Shown here one piece after another: positions 2,546 through 44,162 of a DNA stretch of 64,000 nt. The position numbers and the translations under genes were made by a program. Below the pieces are notes generated by a model. The model ran no database searches, had not been told where the DNA came from, and saw nothing but the letters and a program-made list of their open reading frames with translations. The stretch spans positions 23,289 to 87,288 of the forward strand of contig JAZPYB010000025.1 of the NCBI GenBank assembly GCA_045543955.1, in the 5' to 3' direction. The number at the start of each line of letters is the position of its first letter. Within the stretch, counting starts at the first letter, position 1. The stretch is from Eubacteriales bacterium. GTDB lineage: Bacteria; Bacillota; Clostridia; Oscillospirales; CAG-272.

Positions 2546-2552
2546 GGAGGAA

Positions 2553-3515: not shown

Positions 3516-3520
3516 AATAA

Positions 3521-19111: not shown

Positions 19112-22100
19112 ATGAGAAAGAAAGCGAAAAAGCTACTTGCATTTTTACTTTGTCTTATCATGCTAGTGCCGACTATGGGCTTGTCAGCATTTGCATCAAG
19201 CATAACAAGTAGCTCAAGTGGAAGCTCGTCTTCCCAATCGTCAATTTCTGACATCAGTGCTATTCTTAATGCTTTGTCTTATGACGAGTATCGAGAGAAT
19301 GTTTTGAGTAAGCACAACACCGTTGGAAACTTGACATTATACTCTCAACTCGGCGAGGAGCTTGGTACGGCTACTGTCGTAGATGGGGTGGCTTCCGTTT
19401 TAGTTTATAACGGAGTCGAATATAACCTTAAAAAGCAAGGAAAGAGTACTTATGTTACACTCAGTGGTACATATGTTGGCTCAGCTAAGCTTAAATCAGA
19501 AGGCGCGGTGTCAGAGTATGAGATAACTGTTACCTTTGATGCTGACAAGAGAACGGCTAAAATTGTTGAATCTGTTGAGGTAACCAAAAAGGGAAAAACA
19601 ACAGCCAAGGAAACAACAGTTAATGCTGTCTACAATTTAGTCGATACAATCGAGCTTGTTATGGACCCTAAATTCAGCAATCAATTTGATTTGCTAGAGG
19701 GTGTATACGTAGTTGATGGTAAAGAAATTATTTTGGCTAACGATACAGACAGAATAAAGGAAAACGTTTGCTTTGGGGATAAAACAGGTGACGACAATGG
19801 CGTTTATCTTGGCTCAACTGGTGTAGTTACATGGAGCTTTGATGTTCCGGAAAATATGAGTGGTAACTATGTAATTGAGATAAAATATACTCAAGCAATG
19901 GCAGACGATGTTCTCGATGGAGATAGCAAGCCTACAAGTAACTCTATTGAGAGAATATTCTACCTAAATGGTGAAATTCCATTTTCTGAGGCACGCTCAC
20001 TTGTGCTTTCAAAGGTATGGCAATACGAATATCAATATGATGAAAACCACAAACCTACCTTTAAAAATGAAGATGAGAACGGAAAAGGCGATGATATTCG
20101 TCCTTCAGTTATTGAGGACCAAAGCTGGGTAACATATTCTATTAGCGATTCAAACGGTTATGAAATGTATCCATTTGAATTCTATATTAAGCCTGGTGTA
20201 AACACAATCTCCTTAGAGGGACAAAGAGAGGGTATCATTATCCAATCTATTACCTTACGCCCACAAGACAACCTTAAATCTTATAGCCAATATAAGAAAG
20301 AAATGGAAGCTCTTTATGGCAAGATGGAGGACCACAGAGTAAGTGTTGATTTGGATGTTATTGAGGCTGAGGGCCCGGAAAACGTTTCAGCAGTTACAAT
20401 GTATCCTGTATATGATAGAACATCCTCAATCACAAGTGGATTGACAGGTCCACAAAGTGAATCAGCAGTTAAGTATAATACTGCTGGTAAGGAGCAATGG
20501 CAAAACGTTGGCGAGTGGATGAGCTATAATATTACTGTTCCAGAATCAGGCTACTACTCAATTGCAGTAAGATATAAACAAGCACTTCTTAGTGGTATGT
20601 ATGTTTCAAGAAAGCTTTATATAAATGGAGAGATTCCATTCGAAGAGGCAACAAACTGTCGTTTCCCATATACAAGCTCTTGGCAAACCTGTTTCCTAGG
20701 CGACGGCAATACTGAGTTTGAATTTTACTTTGAAAAGGGTAAGGTTTATGAAATTAAGCTTGAGGCAACCCTCGGCGAAATGGGTGAGCAAATCAAGCAA
20801 GTAAGCAAATCACTTACTGAAATAAACAAGGCATACCTCGAAATTCTAAAGCTCACAGGTACAGACCCAGATCCTAACCGTTCATACGGCTTTACACGTG
20901 TTATGCCACACGTTCTTGAGAGTATGCTTATCGAAGCTCAAAATCTTGAGGGCGTATATAATTATATGATAGCAGAGAACAAGGCGCAGGATGGTGGTAC
21001 TGGTGAAGGTGAAAAGACTGCAACCATTAAGCAAGTTTACCAGCTTCTTGAAAAAATGGCGACAAATGAGTCCGAAATTCCTGCAAATCTAGCAACATTG
21101 AAATCACAAATCGGTTCTTTAGGTACATGGATTAATAGCGCAAAAACCCAACCTCTACAAGTTGACTACTATAAGCTTCAATCAAGAGAGGATGAGTTAC
21201 CTAAGGCTGATGCAAACTTCTTCCAAGCTCTTTGGTTTGAAATCAAGCTATTCTTCGCTTCATTCGCGGGCGACTATAATGCTATGGATAGTGAAACAGC
21301 AGGCGGCAATGCTGAAGAAGTAATTGAAGTCTGGGTTGTTACCGGACGTGACCAAGCACAAATTATAAGAAACCTCATTGAAAATAAATTCACACCAGAA
21401 CAAAAAATCGGCGTTAACATTAAGCTCATATCAGGAGGAACTCTATTGCCTTCAATTATTGCTGGCGTAGGTCCTGAGGTTTCGCTTATGGAGGCAAGCG
21501 CAACAATTATCGACTATGCTCTCCGTAATGCAATTAAGCCTCTAAACGATTACGTTAACGAGGATATTAAAAATGGTACAAATATATTAGATGAATTCCC
21601 AGAGGCAGCAATTGAGCCACTTACACTTTATAACTTTGGTTATGATGATACTAAGGGCGTTTTAGAGGATTCAAATACATATAATTGGAAGGAAGAGGAT
21701 CTCTATCTGTGGAGAGACGATGCTACAAGCATTGTTAACGGAAAAGAGGTTAATTACCTTGTTGATAAGAATAATGTAAATGACCCATTTGATGATGCAA
21801 AGTATGGCTACAACTGGAAGAATGATGATGGACACACAGGTATTGAGCTTTATGCATTGCCTGATACACTTTCATTCTCAATGATGTTCTATCGTGAGGA
21901 TATATTTGCAAACCTAGAGCTTGATGTTCCAAAGACATGGGACGATATGCTCGCAATTCTTCCTATTCTTCAATATAATAATATGGAGCTAGGTATCCAA
22001 AACGATGCATACACATTTATGTATCAAAATGGAAATGAAGCATACTCAAACAACGGTATGACTATCAACTTCGATTCAAAGGGCGTTCTTAACTCCTTTG

Positions 22101-22807
22101 AAACAATGTGTAACTACTATACACAATATTCACTTCCATACACATATGATTTCGCAAACCGTTTCCGTACAGGTGAAATGCCAATCGGTATTGCTCCATA
22201 TACAACATGTAACCAGCTATCAGTCTTTGCGTCTGAGCTTTCAGGTCTTTGGACATTCGTTAAGCTCCCTGGCGAGGTTGTAGTTGATGAAAACGGCAAG
22301 GAAATCCTTGATGGAAATGGAAATATTCAAATTAACAGAAACGCAATAGCAACTGTTACAGGCTGTGTTATGATTGATAATGGCAACAGCACTGAACAAC
22401 AGAAGAGAGATAATGCTGCATGGAAATTTATGAAGTGGTACACAGGAAATGAATTCCAAGCAGATTATTCAAATGGCGTAGTTTCTATTATGGGTATCGC
22501 GGCAAGACCTGCAACCGCAAATAGAATCGCCCTTGAGGAATTACCTTGGACAGCAAAGGAAAAGGCTAATATCCTTGACCAATTCAACAACCTTGTGGCA
22601 GTTCCAAACCATCCAGGTAGCTACTATTTAGCTCGTTATGTCAACTTCGCATTCCTAGCTGCATACAACGAAGGAGAGGATGCATCTGATGCACTTCTTG
22701 GCTACGTTACAACTATCAATGCAGAAATTGAGAGAAGACGTGAAGAGTTTGGTATGCTCAAATTCAAGGATTATCAAAAAATTAATAGCGACGGAAAGCT
22801 AGATTAA
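19112..22807 (+). CDS. Giant secreted ABC substrate-binding protein with two N-terminal CBM-like beta-sandwich modules
   Basis: The signal peptide ends at SAFA|SS, has no lipobox, and is followed by a Ser-rich linker. Two paralogous modules lie at about 19820-20270 and 20357-20775; both contain Y.I.(IK/VR)Y.QA and (F/L)Y(L/I)NGEIPF(S/E)EA. A helical linker follows. The C-terminal roughly 500 aa (from about 21316) look like a family-1 extracellular solute-binding protein. Confidence 0.75.
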   Translation: MRKKAKKLLAFLLCLIMLVPTMGLSAFASSITSSSSGSSSSQSSISDISAILNALSYDEYRENVLSKHNTVGNLTLYSQLGEELGTATVVDGVASVLVYNGVEYNLKKQGKSTYVTLSGTYVGSAKLKSEGAVSEYEITVTFDADKRTAKIVESVEVTKKGKTTAKETTVNAVYNLVDTIELVMDPKFSNQFDLLEGVYVVDGKEIILANDTDRIKENVCFGDKTGDDNGVYLGSTGVVTWSFDVPENMSGNYVIEIKYTQAMADDVLDGDSKPTSNSIERIFYLNGEIPFSEARSLVLSKVWQYEYQYDENHKPTFKNEDENGKGDDIRPSVIEDQSWVTYSISDSNGYEMYPFEFYIKPGVNTISLEGQREGIIIQSITLRPQDNLKSYSQYKKEMEALYGKMEDHRVSVDLDVIEAEGPENVSAVTMYPVYDRTSSITSGLTGPQSESAVKYNTAGKEQWQNVGEWMSYNITVPESGYYSIAVRYKQALLSGMYVSRKLYINGEIPFEEATNCRFPYTSSWQTCFLGDGNTEFEFYFEKGKVYEIKLEATLGEMGEQIKQVSKSLTEINKAYLEILKLTGTDPDPNRSYGFTRVMPHVLESMLIEAQNLEGVYNYMIAENKAQDGGTGEGEKTATIKQVYQLLEKMATNESEIPANLATLKSQIGSLGTWINSAKTQPLQVDYYKLQSREDELPKADANFFQALWFEIKLFFASFAGDYNAMDSETAGGNAEEVIEVWVVTGRDQAQIIRNLIENKFTPEQKIGVNIKLISGGTLLPSIIAGVGPEVSLMEASATIIDYALRNAIKPLNDYVNEDIKNGTNILDEFPEAAIEPLTLYNFGYDDTKGVLEDSNTYNWKEEDLYLWRDDATSIVNGKEVNYLVDKNNVNDPFDDAKYGYNWKNDDGHTGIELYALPDTLSFSMMFYREDIFANLELDVPKTWDDMLAILPILQYNNMELGIQNDAYTFMYQNGNEAYSNNGMTINFDSKGVLNSFETMCNYYTQYSLPYTYDFANRFRTGEMPIGIAPYTTCNQLSVFASELSGLWTFVKLPGEVVVDENGKEILDGNGNIQINRNAIATVTGCVMIDNGNSTEQQKRDNAAWKFMKWYTGNEFQADYSNGVVSIMGIAARPATANRIALEELPWTAKEKANILDQFNNLVAVPNHPGSYYLARYVNFAFLAAYNEGEDASDALLGYVTTINAEIERRREEFGMLKFKDYQKINSDGKLD

Positions 22808-22838: not shown

Positions 22839-23873
22839 ATGGCAAAACGTAAAGAAAATTTGCAAAATAAGGCTGAAAACGTTGAACAAGCCGAAGCTGT
22901 ACATAATGATAGTGTTTTAGAAGAATCCAAGGGCGGCAAGAAAAAGGCCGTTGCAAGAAAAGATATGACTATGTTCCAATGGACAATCCATGAAATGAAG
23001 AGACATAAAATCGCGTATTTTATGATTGCTCCTTTTATGCTTGTGTTTATTCTTTTCACTGTTTTCCCCGTTGTACTATCACTCGTACTAAGCTTTACAA
23101 ACTTTAATATGCTCGAGTTCAAATGGGACATGTTTATAGGTATTAAAAACTATACAAGACTATTCTTTGAGGATGATATATTCCTCCTCGCTTGCAAAAA
23201 TACATTAGTTTTTGCGGCAATTACCGGTCCTGTTTCCTATATTCTTTCGTTCCTTGTTGCATGGTTCATCAATGAGCTATCACCAAGAATTAGAGCAATT
23301 GTAACACTTATCTTCTATGCACCATCAATCTCAGGCTCTGTATATCTCATTTGGGGTACACTTTTCTCAAATGACGGACAGGGATGGGTTAACGGTACAC
23401 TTATGAAGCTAAATATCATAGATGCGCCGATTCTTTGGTTCTATGATGAAAGATATGCAATGACACTTTGTATCGTAGTTGCACTTTGGATGTCGCTCGG
23501 TACAGCATTCCTCTCGTTCATCGCCGGTCTTCAAACAGTTGACAAGAGCTTGTTTGAGGCAGCCGCGGTTGACGGTATCAAAAACAGATGGCAAGAGCTA
23601 TGGTTTATTACCTTGCCAATGATGCGACCACAGCTTATGTTCGGTGCCGTAATGTCAATTACAGGTGCGTTCGGCTTTGGTGGCGTTGTAACCGCACTTT
23701 GTGGCTTCCCATCAGTAAACTATTCGTGTCATACGATTATGCACTGCTTGGAGGACTACGGAAACCAACGTTGGGAAGTAGGATATGCTTCCGCTATTGC
23801 GTTCGTTTTATTCATTGTAATGATGGGTGCAAACGTTCTGGTTAATAAAATGCTTTCGAAGGTGGGACAATGA
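22839..23873 (+). CDS. Sugar ABC transporter permease, MalF-like (pair 1)
   Basis: It has 6 predicted TM segments, the EAA loop EAAAVDGIKNRWQELWFITLPMMRP, and an N-terminal cytoplasmic extension of about 55 aa. Confidence 0.88.
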   Translation: MAKRKENLQNKAENVEQAEAVHNDSVLEESKGGKKKAVARKDMTMFQWTIHEMKRHKIAYFMIAPFMLVFILFTVFPVVLSLVLSFTNFNMLEFKWDMFIGIKNYTRLFFEDDIFLLACKNTLVFAAITGPVSYILSFLVAWFINELSPRIRAIVTLIFYAPSISGSVYLIWGTLFSNDGQGWVNGTLMKLNIIDAPILWFYDERYAMTLCIVVALWMSLGTAFLSFIAGLQTVDKSLFEAAAVDGIKNRWQELWFITLPMMRPQLMFGAVMSITGAFGFGGVVTALCGFPSVNYSCHTIMHCLEDYGNQRWEVGYASAIAFVLFIVMMGANVLVNKMLSKVGQ

Positions 23874-23874
23874 T

Positions 23875-24747
23875 ATGCAAAAAATGAGAGTTAGAAATCA
23901 TCAAGTTGTCCTCAACCGTTCGAAGGGTGGAGACGCAGGAATATTTATCTTCCTTGCAATAATGGGAGTATTTATGTTCTTGCCAATGGTATATGTTGTA
24001 ATGCAGTCGTTAAAGCCTCTTGACGAATTATGGATGTTCCCACCAAGATTTTATGTTGTAAATCCAACATTTAAAAACTTTTCCGATTTGTTTACACTTT
24101 TAAGCGATTCTTGGGTACCTTTCTCAAGATACATATTTAACACAGTGTTTATTACAGCCGCAGGTACATTTGGAAACTTGCTTTTCAGCTCACTTGCTGC
24201 TTATGCAATTTCCAAAATCCCATTCCCGGGAAGACGTGGTGTGTTCTGGATTATTCAGCGTTCACTTATGTTTACTTCGACAGTAACAGCAATTGCTAAC
24301 TTCCTAACACTATCAACACTCGGACTTATGGATAACCCATTTGCACTTATCATTCCTGCATGGGGCTCATCTATGGGACTTTACCTTATGAAGCAGTTTA
24401 TGGACTCCTCAATCTCAGACTCCGTGCTTGAAAGCGCGCGTCTTGATGGATGTAGTGAGTTTAGAACCTTCTGGGTAATCGCTATGCCAATGGTTAAGCC
24501 TGCATGGCTAACACTTATTATTTATTCATTCCAAGGACTTTGGAATACAGGTGCTTCAGCTTACATTTATAGTGAACAGCTAAAGACACTTAACTACGCT
24601 ATTGGACAAATCACAGCCGGTGGTATTGCTCGTGCTGGTGCGTCCGCTGCTGGTACAGTTATTATGATGCTTGTGCCAATTTTAGTATTCGTTATTTCAC
24701 AAAGTAACATTATTGAAACAATGGCATCAAGTGGTATGAAGGATTAA
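23875..24747 (+). CDS. Sugar ABC transporter permease, MalG-like (pair 1)
   Basis: It has the EAA loop ESARLDGCSEFRTFWVIAMPMVKP. I chose the ATG at 23875, directly after the upstream stop. The ORF-track start at 23827 lies inside the previous gene. Confidence 0.88.
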   Translation: MQKMRVRNHQVVLNRSKGGDAGIFIFLAIMGVFMFLPMVYVVMQSLKPLDELWMFPPRFYVVNPTFKNFSDLFTLLSDSWVPFSRYIFNTVFITAAGTFGNLLFSSLAAYAISKIPFPGRRGVFWIIQRSLMFTSTVTAIANFLTLSTLGLMDNPFALIIPAWGSSMGLYLMKQFMDSSISDSVLESARLDGCSEFRTFWVIAMPMVKPAWLTLIIYSFQGLWNTGASAYIYSEQLKTLNYAIGQITAGGIARAGASAAGTVIMMLVPILVFVISQSNIIETMASSGMKD

Positions 24748-24756
24748 GGAGGTATT

Positions 24757-27045
24757 ATGAAAAGATTTGCTAAAATAGTAGCATTTATGTTTGCTTTCAT
24801 TTTGCTTCTTGCTCCTTGTGCTATGGCAGCTACCCCTTATGAAACATATACATACTCAATCAATGGCGAGGTTCTTGAATCTCCCGATGCGTATGTTCCT
24901 GATGGAGTTGCTCCAATCAACTCAGCAACCATTGGACTAGAAAATCTAGGTGGTGTTGAGTTTAACGACTTAACAGACATAGAAGCTGATGATTTCGGTA
25001 ATATTTATATTTCTGATTCTAAAAACAACAGAATTGTTGTTGTTGATAAAAACTACAAATTTAAAGCAATTATCAAGGACTTCGTAAACAGCGACGGTGT
25101 TGAGGATACATTTAGTAATCCTGTAAGCACCTTTACAGTTAGTGAGGGAAACTATAAAGGGCTTTATGTTTGTGATAAAGATAACAAGAGAATTGTTAAG
25201 TTTTCAATAAATGAAAATAATGAAGGAACTGTATATGAGTTTGATAGAGCTTTTAAAGAGCCACATATCAATTTCTCAGGAGAGAATAGCTCATATCAGC
25301 CTATCAGCTGTGTTGTTGATAAGCACGGTAGAATGTATGTTGTTTCAGCCGGAACAACAGAAGGTATCGTGGTTCTTACAAGTGAAGGCGAGTTTATCAA
25401 CTTTATCGGTGCGCCAAAGGTAAGCGTTTCTGCTTTACAAGCGGTAATTCAAACAATCAATCCTTGGTCAACACTCGAGTTTGTAAACGTACCAACAACC
25501 TACTCAAACCTTGAGCTTGATAGAACATACGGCGACTTTGTTTATGGTACTATCATCTATAACTCAGAGGATGAGAACTCACAGCTAACACAAATAACAA
25601 GTAAAGTAACCGATTATTCTCCAGTTAAGCTTTTGAATGCCGGTGGTACTGATATTATGCAACGTACAGGCTTCTTTGCTCCGGCGGGCGAGGTTGCAGT
25701 TGAATTGAATACCAAAATCACAGCGGCAAACAAGGGTGCACCAACAGGTGTGTCACACGTAATTGATATAACAAGTGGCCCTGATGGAGTATGGTCAATT
25801 CTTGACAACAAGCGTGGTAAGATTTATACATACGACCGTTCTGGCAACTTGCTTTACATTTTCGGCGACATTGGAGAGCAATTTGGACAGCTTACTCAAT
25901 CTGATAAGGGTGCAGGTCATGCAATTACATATCAAATATATGATGTGGATCAAACAACAGTTGATGAAGCTGGAAACACTGTTATTAAGCCAACTAAAGT
26001 TACAAAGCTAGTAGTACTTGACCGTTCAAACGCTTCATTAGTTGTATATAGACAGACAGAATATGCTGAAGTTCTTGCAAACGCAATCAAGCTCCAAAAC
26101 GATGGTGAATTTGATAAGGCGGCAGGTGCTTGGAAAGAAGTATTAGCAAGAAACAACAACTTCGATACCGCTTATGTTGAAATGGGTAAAGCATTATACC
26201 GTAACGCAGGCGATAATGATGCAGAACTAAAACAAGCACTTGAATATTTCCAAAATGCATATGATACAGAAAACTATGCAACAGTATTTAAAGCAATACG
26301 TGCAAACATAATGGAAAGATACTTTATATTCCTTGTAATCGGAATAATAGTTCTTCTATTTGTTGTTATCAAGGTGTTTGGTTATGCTGGCAAGGTTAAC
26401 AAGGCAGCAGCAACTAAGGGCGGCAAACGCTCACTCAAGGAAGAGTTAACATACGGATTCCATATCATATTCCATCCATTTGATGGCTATTGGGATTTGA
26501 AAAAGGAAAAGAGAGGCTCAATGAGAGCATCAATTATCTTCCTTATTATTACAGTATTAGCAATTTATTATCAAGGCATTGGTCAAGGCTATTATTATAA
26601 GCCACAAGGCTCAACAGCTACGATAATTTCACAAGCTGCAACCGTTCTTATCCCATTCTTCCTATGGGTGGTTTCCAACTGGTGCTTCACAACACTTTTC
26701 GATGGAGAAGGAAGCTTTAAGGACATTTTCATTGCTTCAGCATACGCACTATTCCCAGTTCCTATCTTTGTAATTGTATCTACAATTTTAACACAAGTAT
26801 TAGTAGGAACAGAATCACAAATTCCAGCACTTATCGTGTCAGTAGCATACATCTGGATGGCATTCCTTATTATTATCGGTATGCAGGTTACACACGATTA
26901 CTCAATGGGTAAAAACATAGTTACAGTAATAGCTACACTAGCTGGTATGGTTATCATAATGTTTATTATTGTACTATTCATCACACTTATTTCTAAGATG
27001 TCATCATTTGTAACAACAATTACAAGTGAAATAAGCTACAGGTAG
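24757..27045 (+). CDS. Secreted NHL-repeat beta-propeller plus TPR-like region fused to a C-terminal Yip1-type polytopic membrane domain
   Basis: The signal peptide ends at CAMA|AT. NHL-like blades include NRIVVVDKNYKF, KRIVKFS, GRMYVVSAGTTEGIVVLTSEGEFINFIG and GKIYTYDRSGNLLYIFG. A TPR-like stretch (DKAAGAWKEVLARNNNFDTAYVEMGKALY) follows. About 6 hydrophobic segments start at aa 519. Confidence 0.7.
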   Translation: MKRFAKIVAFMFAFILLLAPCAMAATPYETYTYSINGEVLESPDAYVPDGVAPINSATIGLENLGGVEFNDLTDIEADDFGNIYISDSKNNRIVVVDKNYKFKAIIKDFVNSDGVEDTFSNPVSTFTVSEGNYKGLYVCDKDNKRIVKFSINENNEGTVYEFDRAFKEPHINFSGENSSYQPISCVVDKHGRMYVVSAGTTEGIVVLTSEGEFINFIGAPKVSVSALQAVIQTINPWSTLEFVNVPTTYSNLELDRTYGDFVYGTIIYNSEDENSQLTQITSKVTDYSPVKLLNAGGTDIMQRTGFFAPAGEVAVELNTKITAANKGAPTGVSHVIDITSGPDGVWSILDNKRGKIYTYDRSGNLLYIFGDIGEQFGQLTQSDKGAGHAITYQIYDVDQTTVDEAGNTVIKPTKVTKLVVLDRSNASLVVYRQTEYAEVLANAIKLQNDGEFDKAAGAWKEVLARNNNFDTAYVEMGKALYRNAGDNDAELKQALEYFQNAYDTENYATVFKAIRANIMERYFIFLVIGIIVLLFVVIKVFGYAGKVNKAAATKGGKRSLKEELTYGFHIIFHPFDGYWDLKKEKRGSMRASIIFLIITVLAIYYQGIGQGYYYKPQGSTATIISQAATVLIPFFLWVVSNWCFTTLFDGEGSFKDIFIASAYALFPVPIFVIVSTILTQVLVGTESQIPALIVSVAYIWMAFLIIIGMQVTHDYSMGKNIVTVIATLAGMVIIMFIIVLFITLISKMSSFVTTITSEISYR

Positions 27046-27056
27046 GAGGGCCAATT

Positions 27057-29915
27057 ATGAAAAAGAGAATAATAGCGGCCGTTCTTGCCGTATTAATGAT
27101 TTCAACATTGCTTTTACCATTATCGGTTGGAGCAGCATCTGTAAATCATATGAGCGCAACCTTCGGAAACGAAAGGGCAAAGCTCGCAACGATGACTTAT
27201 GTTATGACAAGCGATGACCCGGAAAAGGCTGGCAAGGGAGACGGAATCTTGGAGCTTTATGCTGACTATGATTCTGGCGAAATTGCAGTTAAAAATACAG
27301 TAACTGGCGAAATCACTTTGTCAAACCCATATAATATCACAAGTATTTTCCAATCAACTAACACAACTGATAAGGGAAAATTCTTATCACAAGCATATAT
27401 TAAGTATTTCAAGCTTAGCGAAGGTAGCAACGCTATGAAAACTTGGTATAGCTATAATGAATGCTTCGCATATAAGCAGGGTAGTGTTGTTCCAACAGAA
27501 AATGGACTAACGGTTAACTATTCTATTGGAGAAGAAGAGCGCGATTATGCAGTTCCTTTGAAAATAAGTCTAGAGGACTTTTATAATGCTTTACGCACTG
27601 CAGGAAAAGACGACAGGTCAATTGAATTGCTTGTAAAAGAGTATTTTTCTTCATATGACCCTGATCAAAAGTATATCAAAGACCCACTGTTGAGCGACCC
27701 AACAAGTACTAAGCGCGAAACAATGATTAAGGAACAACCTCTTTGTGCAACAACACCATTTATGTTCCTTTTGCCAAATGTTTACCAAAATACTAACACA
27801 ATGAAGAATTTGGAACAAAAGCTAGTGGCAGCTGCGCCTGAGTACTTTGTGTTATCCAAAGAGGGTGAGGAAAAGACTCAATTTGAGCTTGACAGAGATA
27901 AGTATTGGAATGAAGAAGCTGATAGAGGTATGTATCCTGAAAAGGAATATCCAAACTTCAAGTTTACTGTAGATTATAAGCTTACAAACGATGGATTGGT
28001 TGTTGAGCTTGATACGAAAACAATCGAATATAATAAAGATCTCTATTGTCTTGCAGAGATTACACTTCTTCCATACTTTGGTGCAGCTTCATTGAATCCA
28101 GAGTTGGATGAAAAGGGCAATACTCAATACGATAATGGATATATCTTTATTCCTGACGGAAGTGGCGCAATTGTAAGATTTGAGGATCTTATTGCTAAAA
28201 ACCAAACAGGTAAGATTTCTTCCATACTATATGGCTCTGATTATGCTAAGTATCAAATAACCGGAAAGAATACAGAGCAATACACAATGCCTGTATTCGG
28301 CTTGATTAACTCTAGCGAGGATAATGGAACAGGATATTTTGCAATAATCGAAGAGGGCGATGCGATGGGCTCCATCGTTGCCGATGCGGAAAGATACTAT
28401 ATTTCTGCATACGCATCATTTAAATATGCAGATTATGACGTGTATGACCTAGCAGATGCTTTCTCGAGTGGTACATCTTCATCTACTGAAATTACTGTAG
28501 TTTCTGACAATTGCTATGAAGGTAAGTATAGAGTGAACTATAAGTTTTTGACAGCAGAGGAGACAGCAAAGCAGTATGATTTAAAAAATACCTACGATAC
28601 ATCATATGTAGGAATGGCAAAGCTTTATAGAGATTACTTAACTGCAAATGGAACAATAAAGAAAATCACAGAAACTGAAGAGAACACAAAGCTTTTCCTT
28701 GAGGTCTTTGGTTCTGTTAAGGTTAAAGAGCAGGTATTCTCATTCCCTGTTACTGTTAATAAAGAACTCACAACCTTCAGCGATATAATAAATATGCAGA
28801 AGGAGCTTGCAGATGCAGGCATTGATAACAGCTCATATATCTTGAAGGGCTTCTACAATGGTGGTCTTGCATCAACATATCCTACAAAGATCAAATGGCA
28901 AAAGGTTCTCGGTGGTGAAAAGGGTCTCAATGCGCTTCTTGCCGACTCCGAAATGAATAACTATGATGTTTCTTTGGATGTAGATTTTTCGTATTCTCAT
29001 GGTTCAAAATGGTTTAGCGGTTACTCTAGTAGTAAGCATGCAACAAAAACCATTGACGATAGATATACAACAAGACGTACATATTATGCCGCTACACAAA
29101 CCTTTGAGCGTACAAGTGGCGTTGCTGTTTCAAGCGCATCGTTTATTTCACTATTCGAAAAATTTACAAAATCAATATCTGATGTAAGCCTTAAGTCATT
29201 AGCAATAAGAGCTCTTGGCAAAGATTTGAACTCGGATTTTGACAAGGATGACTTCTATTCAAGAGAGGATTCTAAAAACAATACAGTTAAGTTTATGGAA
29301 TCAATTACAAGGCTCAACGAACGCAAGTTTGGTTTAATAATTGATGCAGGAAATGTGTATGCGATGAAGTATGCTTCAGGTGTTCTTTCAGCTCCTCTTG
29401 ATAGTAGTAAATATATAAGAGCAAGTGAAAGTGTTCCTTTCTATGGTATGGTATATCACGGTTCAGTTGAGTTTGCAGGAAATGCACTCAATATGGAGGG
29501 TGACCAAGACTATATGTTCTTGAAGGCAATCGAGAACGGAGCAGTGCTTTACTACACATTAGCAAAGCAAAATGTTGAAACACTTAAATCCGATCCTGAA
29601 TATAGCAAATATTATTCAATAAGCTATGATTTCTTAAAGGGTTCAATAGCTGAAAACTATACAACATATAACAATGCAATGAAGGATAAGCAAAACAAAT
29701 TCATCGTTGATCATAAATTCCTCAATGATGGAGAAGAAAATTGCTCCGTTACATTGCTTGATGGCACAGCAGTTGATAACTCCTTGGTAGTTCTCGTTGT
29801 ATACGAGGGTGGAGAGGGATTCATTCTCAACTACAATAGCCAAGATGTAATTGTTGAATTCGAGGGTAAAGAATATATAGTTCCAGGCCTTGATTTCAAA
29901 CCATACAAATCATAA
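27057..29915 (+). CDS. Secreted 952-aa protein of unknown function (DUF5696-like, from memory)
   Basis: It has the signal peptide MKKRIIAAVLAVLMISTLLLPLSVGA|AS and no motif of a characterised family that I can recognise. The DUF5696 assignment is recollection of similar loci, not a search result. Confidence 0.5.
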   Translation: MKKRIIAAVLAVLMISTLLLPLSVGAASVNHMSATFGNERAKLATMTYVMTSDDPEKAGKGDGILELYADYDSGEIAVKNTVTGEITLSNPYNITSIFQSTNTTDKGKFLSQAYIKYFKLSEGSNAMKTWYSYNECFAYKQGSVVPTENGLTVNYSIGEEERDYAVPLKISLEDFYNALRTAGKDDRSIELLVKEYFSSYDPDQKYIKDPLLSDPTSTKRETMIKEQPLCATTPFMFLLPNVYQNTNTMKNLEQKLVAAAPEYFVLSKEGEEKTQFELDRDKYWNEEADRGMYPEKEYPNFKFTVDYKLTNDGLVVELDTKTIEYNKDLYCLAEITLLPYFGAASLNPELDEKGNTQYDNGYIFIPDGSGAIVRFEDLIAKNQTGKISSILYGSDYAKYQITGKNTEQYTMPVFGLINSSEDNGTGYFAIIEEGDAMGSIVADAERYYISAYASFKYADYDVYDLADAFSSGTSSSTEITVVSDNCYEGKYRVNYKFLTAEETAKQYDLKNTYDTSYVGMAKLYRDYLTANGTIKKITETEENTKLFLEVFGSVKVKEQVFSFPVTVNKELTTFSDIINMQKELADAGIDNSSYILKGFYNGGLASTYPTKIKWQKVLGGEKGLNALLADSEMNNYDVSLDVDFSYSHGSKWFSGYSSSKHATKTIDDRYTTRRTYYAATQTFERTSGVAVSSASFISLFEKFTKSISDVSLKSLAIRALGKDLNSDFDKDDFYSREDSKNNTVKFMESITRLNERKFGLIIDAGNVYAMKYASGVLSAPLDSSKYIRASESVPFYGMVYHGSVEFAGNALNMEGDQDYMFLKAIENGAVLYYTLAKQNVETLKSDPEYSKYYSISYDFLKGSIAENYTTYNNAMKDKQNKFIVDHKFLNDGEENCSVTLLDGTAVDNSLVVLVVYEGGEGFILNYNSQDVIVEFEGKEYIVPGLDFKPYKS

Positions 29916-29933: not shown

Positions 29934-31079
29934 ATGAAAAATGTATATGAAAATCAAAACAGCGTATCGCTTAAGCCCACAGAAGTAGTTTCTGAAGAGC
30001 ATAAGATATATATGCTAAATCCTATTGCTAAGCCAAGGGTAGAAGAACCGGTGGTTGAGCAAGAGGAAACACCGGTAGTAGAGGAAGTAGTTGTAGAGGA
30101 GTCCGTTTCAGCGGATGCCTCTGCTGCAACTGCAACCGTTCAAACTGCTACTTATCGAAAAAAGAAAAAAGGTTTATCACTAAAGAGCAAAAAAGCGCTT
30201 TCCGGTTGGCTCTTCTGCCTACCATTTGTGCTCGGAATTATCGGTATTTATTTACCTATGGTAATTAAATCAATTGAAGTTTCATTCCGTGGCTCCAAGG
30301 GCAACAATGACTTCTTTAGCTTTGATGCCTACGTTGCAGTATTTAACGACCCTAACGGTTTTACTAAAACAGTGCTAGACGCTATGGGCGACTTGGTATT
30401 GCAAATACCAGCAATTGTAATATTTGCACTCTTTATGGCTATAATTCTTAACCAAAAGATGACAGGCCGTACATTCTTCCGTGCAGTATTCTTCTTGCCA
30501 GTTATTCTTTCAACTGGTATCATCGACGCAATTGACACACAAATAAGCGCAGGCGAAATGAACGAAAGCGGCGCAGTTGACGATAACACAGGCTCAGAGG
30601 GTGATGGATTTATTTCAGCACTTGATGTAGAAGCACTGCTGTCGAGCGTCAATATAACGATAGGTAAGTTTAATATGGCTGAAATGGTAACAAGCCTTAT
30701 TAACAAAATATTTATGATTGTTAGCCGTTCAGGCGTACAAATGCTTATATTCCTATCAGGCCTACAATCTATTTCACCATCCATTTACGAGTCTTGTCAG
30801 ATGGAAGGCGCATCCGCTTGGGAAACCTTCTGGAAGATTACATTGCCAATGATAAGCCCAATGATTCTTGTAAACGCAATTTATACAGTTGTTGACCTAT
30901 TTACAGCGGCTGACAACCGTGTAATGCAAGGTCTAGCTGGATACGGTGGTATGTTTGGCTCGAACAACCCTGGTAACTTCAGTGCTGGTATTTGGATTTA
31001 CATCCTACTCGTACTTGTTGTAGTTATTGTGGTTGCATTGTTGATGAAAACGGTAGTGTTCTACCAAAGAAGAGACTAA
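29934..31079 (+). CDS. Sugar ABC transporter permease, MalF-like (pair 2) with acidic N-terminal extension
   Basis: It has the EAA loop ESCQMEGASAWETFWKITLPMISP and an E/V-rich N-terminal extension of about 95 aa. An inserted Asp/Gly-rich segment (putative extracellular loop) lies at about 30528-30720. Confidence 0.85.
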   Translation: MKNVYENQNSVSLKPTEVVSEEHKIYMLNPIAKPRVEEPVVEQEETPVVEEVVVEESVSADASAATATVQTATYRKKKKGLSLKSKKALSGWLFCLPFVLGIIGIYLPMVIKSIEVSFRGSKGNNDFFSFDAYVAVFNDPNGFTKTVLDAMGDLVLQIPAIVIFALFMAIILNQKMTGRTFFRAVFFLPVILSTGIIDAIDTQISAGEMNESGAVDDNTGSEGDGFISALDVEALLSSVNITIGKFNMAEMVTSLINKIFMIVSRSGVQMLIFLSGLQSISPSIYESCQMEGASAWETFWKITLPMISPMILVNAIYTVVDLFTAADNRVMQGLAGYGGMFGSNNPGNFSAGIWIYILLVLVVVIVVALLMKTVVFYQRRD

Positions 31080-31091
31080 GGAGGTGCTAAA

Positions 31092-32162
31092 ATGGATACA
31101 GTAAAAGTAAAAAGAGAATCCAAAAACAAAATCAAAGTTGATTTTGAAAGAGCGCCTCTAAAAGAGAGATTGAAGCAAAAGTTCTTGTCCTTTAATTTCT
31201 TTAAAAAGGTAGTATTTGTAATTTTTAGAACTGTACTTTTGATAGGTATTACATTTATAATACTTTATCCGTACATCACAAAGATTCTATCATCTGTAAT
31301 GTCAATAAGTGACGTTAAGGATGCTATGGTTATTCTTATTTCTAAAAATCCAACGTTCGATCAGTATTGGTATATACTTACACAAAATGATTATTTAAGA
31401 GCAGTTATAACTACATTTGTTGTTTCATTTTCCGTTGCATTAATCCAGACACTTGTGTGTGCTTTAGTTGCTTACGGATTAGCAAAATTCAAGTTTAAAG
31501 GCAATTCAATAGTGTTTGCGCTTGTTATAGTAACCTTGATGGTACCACAAGAGGCACTAAAGAACTCTATGGATGCATTCTTTAGACAAATTACATTGTT
31601 TGAAACAACAATGAACCCAATAAGCTTTATATTACAGCCACTTCAAAATATGTTTGGCATGTTTGAGAACGGCTACGGATTTTCCGATAGCTTAATCCCT
31701 CTTTATGTCTTATCAATATTAGGCTTGGGCTTTAAGAATGGACTGTTTATATTTATGCTAAGACAATTTTTCAAGGGTGTACCTGACGAGCTTGAGGAGT
31801 CAGCCTTCGTTGATGGCTCAAGCACATTCCGTACCTTCTTTAGCATAATTATTCCAATTTCTATTCCTATGCTAATAACAGTATTTATCTTTGCATTCTC
31901 ATGGCAATGGACAGATGATTTCTATACAACTATGTTCTTAGCAAAGGAAAATTCAGCATTCGTATTTATGAAGCATATTGCGAGAACTCCAGAATATATA
32001 GGAGAGCTTCTTAAAACAGAAACCCAAAACATTTCAAATGCATATAGTGCTATTGTATTGGGAACAGCTTCTATTCTTATCGCATTGCCACTTCTTATTG
32101 CATATGTATTCTTGCAAAGAAGAATTGTTGAGGGCGTAGAAAGAAGCGGTATCGTTGGATAA
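31092..32162 (+). CDS. Sugar ABC transporter permease, MalG-like (pair 2)
   Basis: It has the EAA loop ESAFVDGSSTFRTFFSIIIPISIPM and a GAGGTG RBS. Confidence 0.85.
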   Translation: MDTVKVKRESKNKIKVDFERAPLKERLKQKFLSFNFFKKVVFVIFRTVLLIGITFIILYPYITKILSSVMSISDVKDAMVILISKNPTFDQYWYILTQNDYLRAVITTFVVSFSVALIQTLVCALVAYGLAKFKFKGNSIVFALVIVTLMVPQEALKNSMDAFFRQITLFETTMNPISFILQPLQNMFGMFENGYGFSDSLIPLYVLSILGLGFKNGLFIFMLRQFFKGVPDELEESAFVDGSSTFRTFFSIIIPISIPMLITVFIFAFSWQWTDDFYTTMFLAKENSAFVFMKHIARTPEYIGELLKTETQNISNAYSAIVLGTASILIALPLLIAYVFLQRRIVEGVERSGIVG

Positions 32163-38269: not shown

Positions 38270-38298
38270 TTGACAATTTACATAAAAAATGATAAAAT
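38270..38298 (+). promoter_or_regulatory. Sigma-A promoter of the discoidin lipoprotein gene
   Basis: It reads TTGACA, a 17-nt spacer, then TAAAAT. This argues against the ORF-track start at 38270. Confidence 0.65.
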
Positions 38299-38329
38299 AA
38301 AAGAGAAGAAAAATTTGGAGGATCATAAA

Positions 38330-40594
38330 ATGAAAAACAAGCTTTTAGTTTTGTTGTCTTTAATTTTATGCTTGTCAATGATTTTCGTTCTTGCTTCTTG
38401 TGGAGGCGGAAGAAGAGATACTGACACTGACACAGAGACACAAACAGAGACAGAATCCCAAACCGAAACCGAAACTGAAACAGAGACAGAAACTGAAACA
38501 GAAACAGAAACCGAAACTGAAACTGAGGACCCAGTATGCGACCACAGTGAATGGGAGATTGAAACTATTCAAGAGCTAACCTGCGATCAAAATGGCATTA
38601 CTGTAAAGAAATGCTCATCTTGTGGAGAGGAGCTTGAGGACAGAGAAGAGATTATAACTGAAGGGCACAAGTGGAGTGATTGGAAGGAAACACAAGAGCT
38701 TACTTGCACTCAAGATGGTATAGAGGAAAGAAAGTGTACAGCTGCAAATTGTGGAAAGACTGAAACTAAACAAACAGAAGCAGCAGGTCATAACGCTGGA
38801 GACTGGGTAACAGAAAGTGAGCTTACCTGCGAAACCGACGGCGTTGAGGTTCAGAGCTGTACTGCCTGTGGAGAAGAATTAGACAAAAAAACAATCAAGA
38901 CAGAAGGTCACCAATGGACCGAATGGGGCATTGGTTGGGATGATGCACCATTTGCTAAGGAAGCAACATGCCTAGAGGCTGGCTATCTAGGTAGAGTATG
39001 CTATGGCTACTGCGGTGGTGAGGAAGTGCAAATTGTGCCAATAGCCGACCATCAAATGGGCGATTGGGTAATTCCTGAAGGCGTTACCTGTACAACAGGT
39101 GGAACTATAACAAGAACATGTACAGTTTGTGAAGAGTACACCGAAACAAATACTGTTGAGCCTGGTGGACACGTTAACGTCTATTACGATGGTGCTATTG
39201 AAGCTACCAAGGAGCAAGATGGTTCAACTGGCGTAAAAAAGTGTAAAGCTTGTGGCGCAACAATAGAAAGCGCAAAGGTAATTCGAATTGTTAATGTAGT
39301 ATCTAATGCGACAGTAACAAGTAATGCCTCACACTGGCAGGTTGTTGGAAACAACTGGGCTCCAAATACACTTAACTATATAAATGATGGAAACAAAGAA
39401 ACTGGTATGCCATCGTGTGCAAATCTTAGAGGCACTCAGTGGGTAAAGCTTTCCTTTGAGGAAGCTATAGATTTAACCGAGCTAGTTGTTGTTTGCAATG
39501 GTAAGGGCAATATTGGAGGATTAGAAAGCGTAAAAGAGCTTACCAACCTTGGCGTAGACCTTGCTATAACATTTATAGATTCTGAAGGAACTATTGTTTC
39601 AACAGAAACAAAGAATTCACTTGATGTGTTAGAGCTTTCATTTAAAAACACAAGCGATACACCAATAAAGGAAATTACAATTTCATATCAAACAGAATAT
39701 AATGCAAGAACAATTTATTTGTGGGAAGCGGAAGCATATGAAAAGCAGTACCTAAACCCATGTGAGGCAAACGGACACGCATGGAGTGATTGGGATGTAA
39801 CCCCTGCTACTTGTAGCCCTGAGGAGCTTGTAAATGGTTCTAGGACAAGAGAATGTACAGCTTGTGGCGAAACCGAAACAGAAACAATAGTTGCTGCTCA
39901 CTCTTGGTCAGAATGGGAAACAGGCAATATAACCTGCGCAACAGGTGGAACAAAAACAAGAGAATGTACAGCTTGTGGTAAGGAAGAAAGTGAAACAGTT
40001 GAGCCATCCGGACACTTAGATGTTCAGCTCGAAAATGCAAAAGAAGCAACATTTGAGGAAGATGGCTATACAGGCGACCGTGTATGTAAAGCTTGTGGCG
40101 AAACAGTTGAAGAGGGAACAACAATTCCTAAGATTGTAAACCATGCATCTTCTGCTACTGCAACAACAACTGCTTGGGTTGTAACAGCAAGCTATATAAA
40201 CGATGGTAAAATGGACACAGGCGCAACTGGTTATGGTAATGCACAAAGAGACGTAACTCATACTTTAACATGGGCAAGCGCAGTTGGATTTAACACCTTT
40301 AAGCTTTATTTCAATGGTGACACAACAAATAAAAAATTAGGTTCAAACATTGATGATAATTTTGCTGATCAATATAACAATACAAACACTAACACAACCT
40401 TAACAGTAAAATTCTACGGTGCAGATGGCACTACTGTTGTAAAAGAAGTAGTGATTAACACGGTGGATCAAACTGAATATACAATTTCATTAGGAGAAGT
40501 AACTCAAATTTCAAAGGTTGAAATTGTAAACTATCAGGGTTGGGATATGAGCAAGGCTGTTAACATTTGGGAAGTTCAAGCTTACACAGAATAA
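38330..40594 (+). CDS. Surface lipoprotein: TE-repeat linker, His/Cys3 repeat modules and two discoidin (F5/8 type C, CBM32-like) domains
   Basis: A GGAGG RBS precedes MKNKLLVLLSLILCLSMIFVLAS|C (lipobox). A (T/E/D) low-complexity linker follows. There are 5 full and 1 degenerate repeats of about 41 aa (38534-39265) and 3 more (about 39760-40130). Two domains end in ..IYLWEAEAYE and ..NIWEVQAYTE. Confidence 0.75.
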   Translation: MKNKLLVLLSLILCLSMIFVLASCGGGRRDTDTDTETQTETESQTETETETETETETETETETETEDPVCDHSEWEIETIQELTCDQNGITVKKCSSCGEELEDREEIITEGHKWSDWKETQELTCTQDGIEERKCTAANCGKTETKQTEAAGHNAGDWVTESELTCETDGVEVQSCTACGEELDKKTIKTEGHQWTEWGIGWDDAPFAKEATCLEAGYLGRVCYGYCGGEEVQIVPIADHQMGDWVIPEGVTCTTGGTITRTCTVCEEYTETNTVEPGGHVNVYYDGAIEATKEQDGSTGVKKCKACGATIESAKVIRIVNVVSNATVTSNASHWQVVGNNWAPNTLNYINDGNKETGMPSCANLRGTQWVKLSFEEAIDLTELVVVCNGKGNIGGLESVKELTNLGVDLAITFIDSEGTIVSTETKNSLDVLELSFKNTSDTPIKEITISYQTEYNARTIYLWEAEAYEKQYLNPCEANGHAWSDWDVTPATCSPEELVNGSRTRECTACGETETETIVAAHSWSEWETGNITCATGGTKTRECTACGKEESETVEPSGHLDVQLENAKEATFEEDGYTGDRVCKACGETVEEGTTIPKIVNHASSATATTTAWVVTASYINDGKMDTGATGYGNAQRDVTHTLTWASAVGFNTFKLYFNGDTTNKKLGSNIDDNFADQYNNTNTNTTLTVKFYGADGTTVVKEVVINTVDQTEYTISLGEVTQISKVEIVNYQGWDMSKAVNIWEVQAYTE
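38417..38530 (+). repeat. Imperfect hexanucleotide tandem repeat (GAnACn) encoding a Thr/Glu/Asp linker
   Basis: The sequence gatactgacactgacacagagaca...gaaaccgaaactgaaactgaggac is visible directly. Confidence 0.9.
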
Positions 40595-40754: not shown

Positions 40755-43700
40755 TTATTCAGATCTTAATGCAATAACAGGGTCCTTCTTTGCCGCAACT
40801 CTTGATGGGATAAGTCCAGCAATTAGAGTCAAGCACATACTAATAGCTATTAGTATTACAGCAGGCCAGAAGCCAAGGGACGCTTGTAGTCCTACAATGC
40901 CGGTAAGAGCAAATAGGATTATATTAATTATAACAACAAGCACGAGTGTTACTAAAATACCAATAAGTCCTGAAATTAGACCTACAATCATAGTTTCTGC
41001 ATTGAATACGCGAGAGATATCGCGCTTTGATGCACCCATAGCACGGAGAACACCAATTTCCTTTGTTCTTTCTTGAACAGAAATAAGAGTGATTACACCA
41101 ATCATAATTGAGGAAACGATAAGTGATGTTGCAACAAACGCAACTAATACATAAGTAATTGCATTGATAATTGTAGTGATCGCAGACATCATTTCGCCCA
41201 TAATGTCAGAGTATTCAATTTGCTTACCACTGTCAGCACCAACATCCTTGTTGTATTGAGCGATAAGTGCCTTGAAATCATCCTTTTGCTCAAAGGTTGA
41301 CATATAAACATTGATTGATGAAGGAACACCCATATCAATTCTGCCGAATTTTACAAGGTTTTCCTCGTAGGTTGAATCAGAGAAACGCATAAAGTTGTCA
41401 TAGTAAGTGCCAAATTGTTCAAGTGTATATGTGTTTAAAGAAGCTAAAAGCATTTGGGAATATGCAACATTTGGGGTTTCCTTTAATGCGTCAGGAATTT
41501 GTTCTGCCAGTTTTTTATTTACGTCTGCTTGAATTTGAGCCATAGCACCAGCCTCAGCCATAGGAGTGATGATGCTGTCAATTAAGGTTTTATATGAGCA
41601 GTTGCTCAATCTATATTGAGTTGCAATATAATTTTTGTATTCTGCTTGCTTTTGAGGCTCGGATAGTGAATCAAAATTACCACCTTGAAGCTCATAGTTT
41701 GTCTTTACAGCGGAAATGATTTTGTCCATTTCCTCTTGGTTTTGAGAAATCATAGTCAAAAGAGAAGTGGTTGCAAAATCAAGAGCAGCCTCCTTGTATA
41801 GTGCTTCCTTTTCCTCGTCGGAAAGGGAGTCAAAAGGCTTTGCCGGATTTGACATTTGATACTTCATCTCAGCACCCTTTGTGATTTGAGAAACAATCGT
41901 TTCAGTAGCATATTCAAGCGCGGTAATCTTCTTTGTCTCTACAACACCAGGAGTGCTTGGGTCGTCGTTTGGAACTTCAATAAGAGCGTTATAGCCATTG
42001 AAATAAGCAATTTGTAGGAAAAGCTCAGCTTGCTCTTTGGCTGAAAGGCTGTTCACATATTTAGTGAAGTCTTCCTTCTTTTCAGCGTCGGTCAAATCAG
42101 TAGTTGTTGATTTGAAAGGAAGCTTTGTAATAATATCAATTTCCTTGTTGTTAGCTTGCGCATCTGCAACAGCAGAGAGGGAAGCCTCTTTAATGATATG
42201 AGATGTTAGCTTGCTTGTGTAACCAATAGCTCCATTCATATAGCCTGAATCAACGCTGTCCTTTAGGCGAATGATACCGGAAACCTTTAATTCAAGCGCA
42301 TCGTCGTAAATACTCTCAAGATAAATTTGGTTGTCTGTGTAATTGGTAACTGTGCCAGTCTTTCCGTCATATGAGTAGAAGTCAGATGGCAAAATTACCT
42401 TGTAGCTCTTGTTACAAATTTCCTCAAATGACCAAGAAGGAACCTCGCCCTCTGGCAGTGGTTCAGCTTTAGCTGCATATTCAATGATTTTATCGATATC
42501 AGCCTTGCTCAAAAGACCTAAAGCATAAAGAGTAAGGTCGTCAAGCTCATTGTCCTCGTCAACAACAAGAACAACTTGGTTATGCGCAGTTGGCCATTCA
42601 CCATAAATTACATCATATTGACTGGTTACAATATCACTAACTGTTTTTCCGTTTTTAGAGTCAGCAAGAAGCTCTTGCCACATATTGATTGAGCCCATGC
42701 TCATCATAGATGATGAGGATGACGATGAGCCAAACATAGAGTTTGATTCAGTTTCGCTCATAACACCGGACTGAATGAAGTAGTCAATAAGCATTTCTTG
42801 TAGAAGGGCATTGGTATCTGATTTAATAATATCTCCCTCATCGTTTTTGGTGTAAACATTGAGGTTGAGGCTATATTTATACTGAACCTCGCTGACAGCC
42901 TTATATATGTCGGAGTTTTCGTCGGCAAGACCTTCATCTAAATACTTCTTAAATGATTCAAGGTCGTTTTGAGTTACCTCAATTTTACTAATTTCATCAA
43001 CAAGCTCAGCGATTAATGGGTCCTTATATACAGCATTCTCGTCGCGATTTTCTTTTTCTTCCTCTGTACCCTCTTCGCCACCTGTCAAAAGAGTAAGCAT
43101 CAAGGAGCTTAAATCAACTGATTGGCTTTGAATAGTCAAAGGATATGAAGAAAGAGTGGTTTCTTGAACGTGTCTGATATAACCATTAAGACCGTTTGAA
43201 ACTGCGAAAATAAGCGCAATTCCTATAATACCAATGCTACCTGCAAATGAGGTAAGAATAGTTCTTCCTTTTTTAGTGAGAAGGTTATTAAGGGAAAGCA
43301 AAAACGCAGTAAAGAAGGACATAGAGGTTTTCTTCTTTTTGCCCTTGTTAGTAGTCTTTTTTGTGGCAGGAGTGTCTAAGTTTTGCTCATTTTCTCCGTT
43401 TTCGTTTGCCACTGTGCTTTCAGCATCAATAATAGCCAAATTTTCGACACTTCCCTCGACTTTTTCTTCTTTTTCTAGGGAAGAATCATAAGGATTTGAG
43501 TCGCTTACAACTATACCATCTAAAAGATTGATTATTCTAGTTGAGTACTGTTCTGCTAGCTCTGGGTTATGTGTAACCATAATAACAAGTCTATCATGTG
43601 AGATTTCCTTGATTAGTTCCATGATTTGAACACTGGTTTCAGAGTCGAGCGCACCAGTTGGCTCGTCGGCAAGCAAAATCTCAGGGTCATTAACAAGCGC

Positions 43701-44162
43701 ACGAGCAATTGCAACTCTTTGCATTTGTCCACCCGACATTTGGTTTGGCTTTTTGTATATTTGGTCGCCTAAGCCTACCTTTTCAAGCGCAGAGATTGCA
43801 CGTTCCTTTCTCTCCTTGGCGGAAACGCCTGCAAGAGTAAGTGCGAGCTCAACGTTTTTAAGCACCGTTTGGTGCGGAATTAAATTGTAGCTTTGGAAAA
43901 TGAAGCCAATAGAGTGGTTTCTGTATGTGTCCCAATCGCGATCAGTAAATTGCTTAGTGCTTTTTGCGTTAATTTCAAGGTCGCCGTCAGAATATTTGTC
44001 AAGTCCGCCTATGATGTTTAAAAGAGTGGTTTTACCACATCCGCTTTGTCCTAAAATAGAAACAAACTCACTTGCTCTAAATTCAAGTGAAACACCCTTT
44101 AAGGCATGGACTGTAGAATCACCGGTAATGTAGTCTTTTTTAATGTTGGTTAACTTTAACAT
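40755..44162 (-). CDS. Fused ABC ATPase plus FtsX/MacB-type permease with a very large extracytoplasmic domain
   Basis: The N-terminal NBD has [24 protein letters not shown] and LLADEPT. TM1 lies at about aa 290-325. A soluble region of about 680 aa follows, then three C-terminal TM segments with the FtsX-type [14 protein letters not shown] motif. Confidence 0.85.

Follow-up and report, generated by a model that had tools for sequence, protein, structure and literature searches.

The stretch of DNA analysed here, referred to as the window, comprises 64 kb of contig JAZPYB010000025.1 from an Eubacteriales bacterium. Its central subject is the NHL-TPR-Yip1 gene (NY), which encodes a protein of 762 amino acids (aa) with a predicted extracellular propeller fused to a Yip1 membrane domain. 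The ATG start is preceded by an AAGGAGG ribosome-binding site. NY occupies position four in a row of seven closely spaced genes, all on the same strand, with intergenic gaps of 9-18 nt. The spacing is 9 nt to its upstream and 11 nt to its downstream neighbour. The seven genes code for a giant secreted substrate-binding protein (SBP), two permeases (P1 and P2), NY, a secreted DUF5696 protein and two further permeases (P3 and P4) and are called the cassette in the following. A summary of all parts is given in Table 1.

Table 1. Parts of the seven-gene cassette and segments of the NY protein. Coordinates refer to the window.
Feature	Coordinates	Strand	Product and evidence
Giant secreted SBP, gene 1	19112..22807	+	1231 aa; SBP_bac_8 aa 876-1121, Pfam E 1.1e-14
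Permease P1, MalF/UgpA type, gene 2	22839..23873	+	344 aa; BPD_transp_1, NCBIfam UgpA/PotB-like; EAA loop FEAAAVDG
Permease P2, MalG/UgpE type, gene 3	23875..24747	+	290 aa from ATG 23875; EAA loop ESARLDGC
NY, gene 4	24757..27045	+	762 aa
NY signal peptide	24757..24828	+	aa 1-24, MKRFAKIVAFMFAFILLLAPCAMA followed by A, cleavage between AMA and A; hydropathy and AxA rule
NY six-bladed NHL beta-propeller ectodomain	24889..26055	+	aa ~45-433; Pfam, profile against PDB, AlphaFold2, Foldseek
NY TPR-like helical arm, four helices	26059..26265	+	aa 435-503; family profile and AlphaFold2 helices 435-501
NY transmembrane anchor helix (TM1)	26320..26385	+	aa ~522-543; hydropathy, AlphaFold2
NY Yip1 domain, five transmembrane helices and stop codon	26461..27045	+	aa 569-762; Pfam, hydropathy
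DUF5696 secreted protein, gene 5	27057..29915	+	952 aa; Pfam DUF5696 E 1e-132; signal peptide of signal peptidase I type
Permease P3, MalF type, gene 6	29934..31079	+	381 aa; EAA loop YESCQMEGAS
Permease P4, MalG type, gene 7 (last)	31092..32162	+	356 aa; EAA loop ESAFVDGS; AT-rich intergenic region follows

An original prediction had proposed a cleavable signal peptide for NY, about 490 extracytoplasmic residues with NHL blades and a TPR-like stretch, and about six transmembrane (TM) segments from aa 519 (nt ~26311) that include a Yip1 membrane domain. Each of these elements was recovered. Hydropathy supports the signal peptide, and NY orthologs carry equivalent ones followed by a conserved PYxTYTY motif. 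The extracytoplasmic part amounts to ~495 aa. Hydropathy gives six TM segments, namely TM1 (from nt ~26320), a loop rich in lysine and arginine (K/R) and five more segments, and the last five constitute the Yip1 domain. This domain matches PF04893 at aa 569-737 with an E-value of 1.9e-17 and 64.1 bits (cut-off 28.6), covering profile positions 2-170 of 173.

Pfam searches for NHL, TPR and Yip1 had been suggested along with the original prediction. In addition to Yip1, blade 1 of the propeller (aa 69-95) scores above the cut-off for NHL (PF01436; E 5e-6, 26.7 bits versus 20). The single NY sequence stays below the cut-offs of the TPR models; many orthologs have precomputed TPR matches in Pfam. 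A family profile was built from 29 orthologs and compared with the sequences in PDB. It matches designed NHL 'Pizza' propellers over six stretches (E 1e-23) and the NHL domain of PknD (PDB 1rwi, E 6.6e-9). Moreover, profile positions 410-464 match consensus TPR proteins (E 1e-13 to 1e-18), and the same region is helical in the structural model. Since the profile of 29 orthologs matches both Pizza and consensus TPR, the weak NHL and TPR calls for the single sequence are settled.

The fold of NY was predicted using AlphaFold2 (mean pLDDT 74). The model consists of strands at aa ~46-433, helices at aa 435-501, a long helix at aa 504-553 and a helical bundle reaching to the C-terminus. Confidence is lower at an insert of the propeller (aa ~220-330). 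The best PDB matches retrieved with Foldseek are the NHL domains of Thin, TRIM71, Brat and TRIM2 (E 1e-11 to 1e-8, target TM-score ~0.7), and virginiamycin B lyase is also among the matches (E 4e-7). By sequence and fold NY is thus a member of the Yip1, NHL and TPR families. A recognisable cytoplasmic output domain was not found in the Pfam domain search.

TM1 is followed by a linker of 47 residues (aa 544-590) containing FHPFDGYWDLKKEKRGS and 11 K/R, which is predicted to be cytoplasmic. Based on hydropathy and the positive-inside rule applied to this loop, NY is predicted to have an N-out topology. The propeller and the TPR arm would reside outside the cell. The N-terminus of the Yip1 domain would be cytoplasmic, which is also the case for Yip1 proteins of eukaryotes.

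NY is identical to one NCBI protein record and has hundreds of full-length orthologs. Hence a fusion artefact was rejected as an explanation of the reading frame. A word-indexed search retrieved over 1100 relatives of full length. All of them come from uncultured Clostridia, and "YIP1 family protein" is the best name that any of them bears. HMMER was run against 1.84 billion cluster representatives (clusters of 50% identity) and yielded 4664 matches at E <= 1e-3, 983 of them at E <= 1e-30. Nearly all of the top 150 have a length of ~700 aa, and their alignments run over the entire protein. With tblastn against plasmids, matches were found in Butyrivibrio fibrisolvens D1 and Paenibacillus cellulosilyticus, both of which are cultured. 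The Paenibacillus protein served as query for another search, which returned 2955 further relatives from Paenibacillus, Cohnella, Marinicrinis and Ruminiclostridium hungatei. Two NY copies are present in several genomes. The full-length architecture is common to about 980 clusters of 50% identity, among them cultured Paenibacillus, Cohnella, R. hungatei and B. fibrisolvens.

The original prediction placed NY between the permease pairs of a sugar-type importer. Indeed two pairs of the CUT1/MalFG type flank the gene. That prediction overlooked the DUF5696 gene located between the same pairs, as well as the seven-gene cassette as a conserved unit. The conservation of the cassette was evaluated in several sets of loci. 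A scan of genome contigs with the single NY protein gave 7 close loci from metagenome-assembled genomes (MAGs). Metagenome contigs were scanned with a family alignment, resulting in 523 confirmed relatives, of which the best 80 loci (38-57% identity) were kept and their open reading frames (ORFs) annotated with hidden Markov models made from seven cassettes. The order SBP-P1-P2-NY-DUF5696-P3-P4 on one strand is found at these 80 loci as far as the contigs extend, except for the locus L084. All seven genes are present in 47 of the 80. The same order holds in 10 further loci. It is seen in loci reached from the DUF5696 side, in syntenic MAGs and in cultured genomes; cultured species with this order are B. 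fibrisolvens, P. cellulosilyticus, P. protaetiae and R. hungatei. The SBP gene opens the cassette wherever the contig extends that far, and DUF5696 adjoins NY in every examined locus but L084.

The genes around the cassette show no such consistency. When 84 genes beside complete cassettes were classified with Pfam, only scattered housekeeping families turned up, and no conserved regulator, enzyme or ATPase. As the flanking genes are unrelated, it is the cassette that forms the conserved unit. The census thus gave no clue to the substrate.

In B. fibrisolvens D1 (plasmid pNP243, L013 9920-12015) NY is annotated as two overlapping genes, one for NHL-TPR-TM1 (498 aa) and one for Yip1 (206 aa). 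The apparent split falls within the cytoplasmic linker; both genes would be fused if 'gtcaaatg' had one A more. A GH43 gene and a histidine kinase/response regulator pair are located just upstream of this locus. Homologs of NY are named "YIP1 family protein", "nuclease PIN", "SMP-30/gluconolactonase/LRE family protein", "PknD" (serine/threonine-protein kinase), "streptogramin lyase" or "DUF1282". These inconsistent names look like annotation carried over from partial domain matches. NCBIfam holds no model for NY or for DUF5696. Taken together, NY and its cassette are real, ancient and widespread in Firmicutes (Clostridia and Bacilli) and are already present in databases under uninformative names.

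The EAA coupling loops, which bind the ATPase, are kept in all four permeases of the window. Hence the cassette encodes two complete membrane translocons. For P2 the ATG at 23875 was preferred over the GTG at 23827 from the mechanical ORF list; its orthologs have 290-294 aa. P3 has an acidic N-terminal extension of ~85 aa rich in Val and Glu and an inserted extracellular loop. P3 orthologs of 579-749 aa with a Pro-rich 'Extensin_1' region also exist (L008 14632-16371; L009 14632-16881).

The window of 64 kb contains no gene for a MalK-type ATPase. Firmicutes usually have orphan ATPases that are shared between importers. The SBP gene of Paenibacillus is immediately preceded by one MalK/UgpC-type ATPase gene. 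R. hungatei has a tandem of two MalK-type ATPase genes immediately upstream of the cassette (L097 2886-5145), which fits with two translocons. The ATPases beside the cassette carry OB_MalK/TOBE domains.

The SBP_bac_8 region makes up only the C-terminal portion of the giant SBP. Its N-terminal ~850 aa have no significant family match and give a weak CBM35-like hint at aa 448-490. A sequence search of PDB with the SBP led to nothing but two sub-threshold matches (E 0.11 and 0.59). The signal peptide ends with SAFA before SS and has no lipobox.

The structure of the DUF5696 protein was predicted with AlphaFold2 at higher confidence (pLDDT 85.6, pTM 0.84). It consists of an N-terminal beta-sandwich and a (beta/alpha)8 barrel. 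Foldseek gives the GH129 3,6-anhydro-D-galactosidase 5opq as best match (E 1e-26, target TM-score 0.70), followed by the alpha-N-acetylgalactosaminidase NagBb (E 1e-21) and then by GH101, GH36 and GH31 enzymes. At the sequence level no significant relatives were found in PDB, and the best profile match, again NagBb, is sub-threshold (E 0.09). Owing to this insignificant similarity we call the protein GH129-like in fold. According to the model DUF5696 is a secreted protein with a GH129-like glycosidase fold, which is not the same as a demonstrated membership in family GH129. The barrel contains invariant acidic residues. The GH129/GH101-like fold of the model faintly hints at alpha-linked galactose-type sugars as substrate. 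Our literature searches returned no paper on DUF5696.

Among the metagenome loci, AxA signal peptides without lipobox are found in 34 of 42 giant SBPs and in 73 of 77 DUF5696 proteins. An LPXTG motif or a C-terminal TM segment does not occur in any protein of either group. Three SBPs of ordinary size (450-530 aa) adjoin the cassette in cultured strains, and all of them have canonical lipoboxes. In a single-membrane bacterium an unanchored SBP would drift off unless it were held in place.

The conservation along NY was derived from 38 relatives of 26-79% identity. Conservation is highest in NWC.TTL.DGEG and HPFDG.WDLK, two segments located at the predicted cytoplasmic face of the Yip1 bundle. 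Within the Yip1 domain of NY the most conserved motifs are NWCFTTLFDGEG and THDYSMGKN (TH.YS), which are predicted to lie on the same face. This suggests a contact with permease loops or ATPases and leaves room for a role in regulation or assembly. The conserved residues of the propeller correspond to the structural Asp, Gly and Tyr positions of NHL repeats, which argues against an enzymatic role. An invariant set of His, Glu or Cys that would suggest an active site is not seen in the propeller profile. Across cassettes the conservation ranks P1/P2 > Yip1 > propeller > DUF5696 ≈ SBP. Such a ranking is the pattern expected if SBP, enzyme and propeller were to track the diversity of substrates or partners while the membrane core stays fixed.

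YknW, a Yip1 family protein of Bacillus subtilis, has been reported to interface with the ABC (ATP-binding cassette) exporter YknXYZ and to modulate its assembly (PMC4887032). The original prediction rightly referred to it as a precedent. Based on our data we propose, with middling confidence, that NY is a dedicated accessory or scaffold subunit of a Gram-positive glycan importer with two translocons and that it retains the secreted partners of this importer. The machine would consist of the giant SBP, two permease heterodimers of MalFG type, the secreted GH129-like DUF5696 protein and MalK-type ATPases, whose genes accompany the cassette in some species and presumably lie at other sites in the remaining ones. 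By analogy to YknW and YknXYZ, the five-helix Yip1 bundle might pack against the permease dimers within the membrane, and its conserved cytoplasmic face might touch permease loops or ATPases. Propeller and TPR are typical protein- or ligand-binding modules. Pointing outwards, the propeller and the TPR arm could keep the unanchored SBP, the DUF5696 protein or both at the translocons. Trimming of an extracellular glycan and uptake of the products would then take place in one assembly.

What our data show is how the domains of NY are arranged, that its topology is predicted as N-out and that the order of the seven genes hardly varies in two classes of Bacillota; the role of NY in the importer is inferred. 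Further points in favour of a scaffold are the EAA loops of all four permeases, the ATPase genes upstream of the cassette in some cultured species, the missing anchors of SBP and DUF5696 and the structural nature of the conserved propeller residues. Several points weigh against it. The orientation of NY is itself a prediction from hydropathy and the positive-inside rule. The signal peptides of SBP and DUF5696 could stay uncleaved and serve as anchors, making a tether needless. A simple external tether leaves the conserved cytoplasmic face of Yip1 unexplained. Moreover, the partner of YknW is a MacB-type exporter and belongs to a mechanistically different class of ABC transporters. At locus L084 (NY at 2021-4186) unrelated genes follow NY, and DUF5696, P3 and P4 are absent downstream; this locus could be a truncated cassette or a misassembly.

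A stronger version of the scaffold, which we regard as doubtful, unites the seven products and MalK-type ATPases in one stable ABC-based Gram-positive 'utilisome'. Here Yip1 would bridge both permease dimers, and the propeller-TPR part would dock the non-lipidated SBP and the GH129-like enzyme. The half-cassettes SBP-P1-P2 and DUF5696-P3-P4 would each feed their own translocon. In the second half-cassette DUF5696 occupies the gene position usual for a binding protein, hence it might pass its product directly to P3-P4.

A different role results if the propeller itself binds or cleaves a glycan, as a membrane-anchored lectin, lyase or lactonase, with Yip1 merely being the anchor. Some NY homologs additionally match SGL (SMP-30/gluconolactonase, PF08450) and are recorded as 'streptogramin lyase' or 'gluconolactonase', which agrees with such an activity, as do virginiamycin B lyase among the Foldseek matches and an ectodomain that diverges faster than the Yip1 part in the manner of substrate-specific modules. 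However, the best fold matches are NHL domains of the binding type, the propeller lacks the invariant His/Glu/Cys set, and for mere anchoring there would be no need of five helices in a bundle, nor of cytoplasmic loops that are more conserved than anything else in NY. We assume that a lectin or enzyme is unlikely. Those same loops, with HPFDGYWDLK, NWC.TTL.DGEG and TH.YS as the strongest conserved motifs, would suit a regulator or gate whose propeller/TPR part senses the substrate or the loaded SBP outside and whose Yip1 domain relays this to the MalK-type ATPases or the permeases. A transcriptional regulator is not conserved beside the cassette, and the receptor kinase PknD, found above as PDB match 1rwi, uses an extracellular NHL propeller as sensor. 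On the other hand NY has no recognisable cytoplasmic output domain, and we know of no Yip1 protein that signals. MalK regulation in the maltose system normally acts via the C-terminal domain of the ATPase itself. A regulator appears quite improbable to us.

NY might also be a transient assembly factor that inserts or pairs the permease dimers, or recruits the secreted partners, and leaves afterwards. YknW is described as modulating assembly, and the NY gene sits exactly between the two half-cassettes. The large conserved ectodomain is a better fit for a permanent role at the surface, however, and we rate a transient factor as very unlikely. It is hardly credible at all that NY serves the envelope in some unrelated way and is simply carried along by the operon, given the same position and order in ~90 loci of Clostridia and Bacilli, the unrelated flanks and the gaps of 9-18 nt.

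Some features elsewhere in the window are listed for completeness. At 40755-44162 (- strand) a polypeptide of 1135 aa combines an N-terminal ABC ATPase with a C-terminal FtsX-like permease, resembling a MacB-like fusion. A GH3 protein at 52494-55202 (+) shows a permuted order, with the Pfam 'C-terminal' domain (aa 36-269) preceding the 'N-terminal' one (aa 524-776). An ORF of 774 aa with TTG start at 38270-40594 (+) has no Pfam match at E ≤ 1e-4. Finally, one or more large leucine-rich-repeat proteins of BspA type (LRR_5) are encoded at 58476-62474 (+), and similar ones are found just downstream of the cassette in related genomes (L008 18151-21288).

In 8 million full texts we found no description of the NHL-TPR-Yip1 architecture or of the cassette, and no paper linking Yip1 to an ABC importer, in line with the claim of the original prediction that the architecture is undescribed. 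In a 2026 review on glycoside transporters the words Yip1, NHL, accessory, 'two permease' and DUF are all absent. For P. cellulosilyticus a 'Yip1-like' protein, which may or may not be the one of the cassette, is listed in a proteomics paper with no context given.

As currently described, a carbohydrate ABC importer of Gram-positive bacteria is made up of an ATPase, two permeases and a binding protein that is a lipoprotein. The cassette departs from this in four ways, namely two permease pairs, an enlarged and unanchored SBP, a glycosidase-like DUF5696 protein and a propeller-bearing Yip1 protein. Clostridia of gut and rumen as well as Paenibacillus from soil commonly carry it, often with several copies in one genome, and the cultured carriers in Paenibacillus, Ruminiclostridium and Butyrivibrio make the question testable. 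If NY does organise a complex, this would be the first importer role assigned to a Yip1 domain. DUF5696 would gain a function, and the Firmicutes a counterpart to the glycan-uptake complexes of Bacteroidota.

Compared to the CUT1/MalEFGK type importers of Firmicutes, which use a shared MsmK/UgpC-type ATPase, the cassette shares SBP_bac_1/8, MalF/MalG permeases with EAA loops and, in some species, adjoining MalK-type ATPases. It differs by having two permease heterodimers and one SBP, which is 2-3 times the normal size and not a lipoprotein. Moreover NY and DUF5696 are two extra conserved components between the permease pairs.

NY and YknW are both bacterial Yip1 membrane proteins encoded in ABC operons, a likeness defined by the shared Pfam family PF04893. 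YknW, however, is small, consists of Yip1 only, has no ectodomain and serves a MacB-type exporter with a membrane-fusion protein. In contrast, NY has an extracellular NHL-TPR part of ~495 residues plus an extra anchor helix, and its context is an importer of type I (MalFGK-like) that has two permease pairs, a giant SBP and a GH-like enzyme. Mycobacterium tuberculosis PknD resembles NY in its six-bladed NHL propeller held outside the membrane on a TM anchor. NY differs from PknD by lacking a kinase or other output domain, by the Yip1 bundle as anchor and by the transporter gene context. DUF5696 resembles the GH129, GH101 and GH36 glycosidases in overall fold according to Foldseek, but not by a significant sequence membership.

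The SusCD 'utilisome' of Bacteroidota is a transporter core with stably attached binding protein and glycosidase, which couples degradation and uptake. The cassette may be alike in concept, but has nothing in common with it as to proteins, membrane and energy source.

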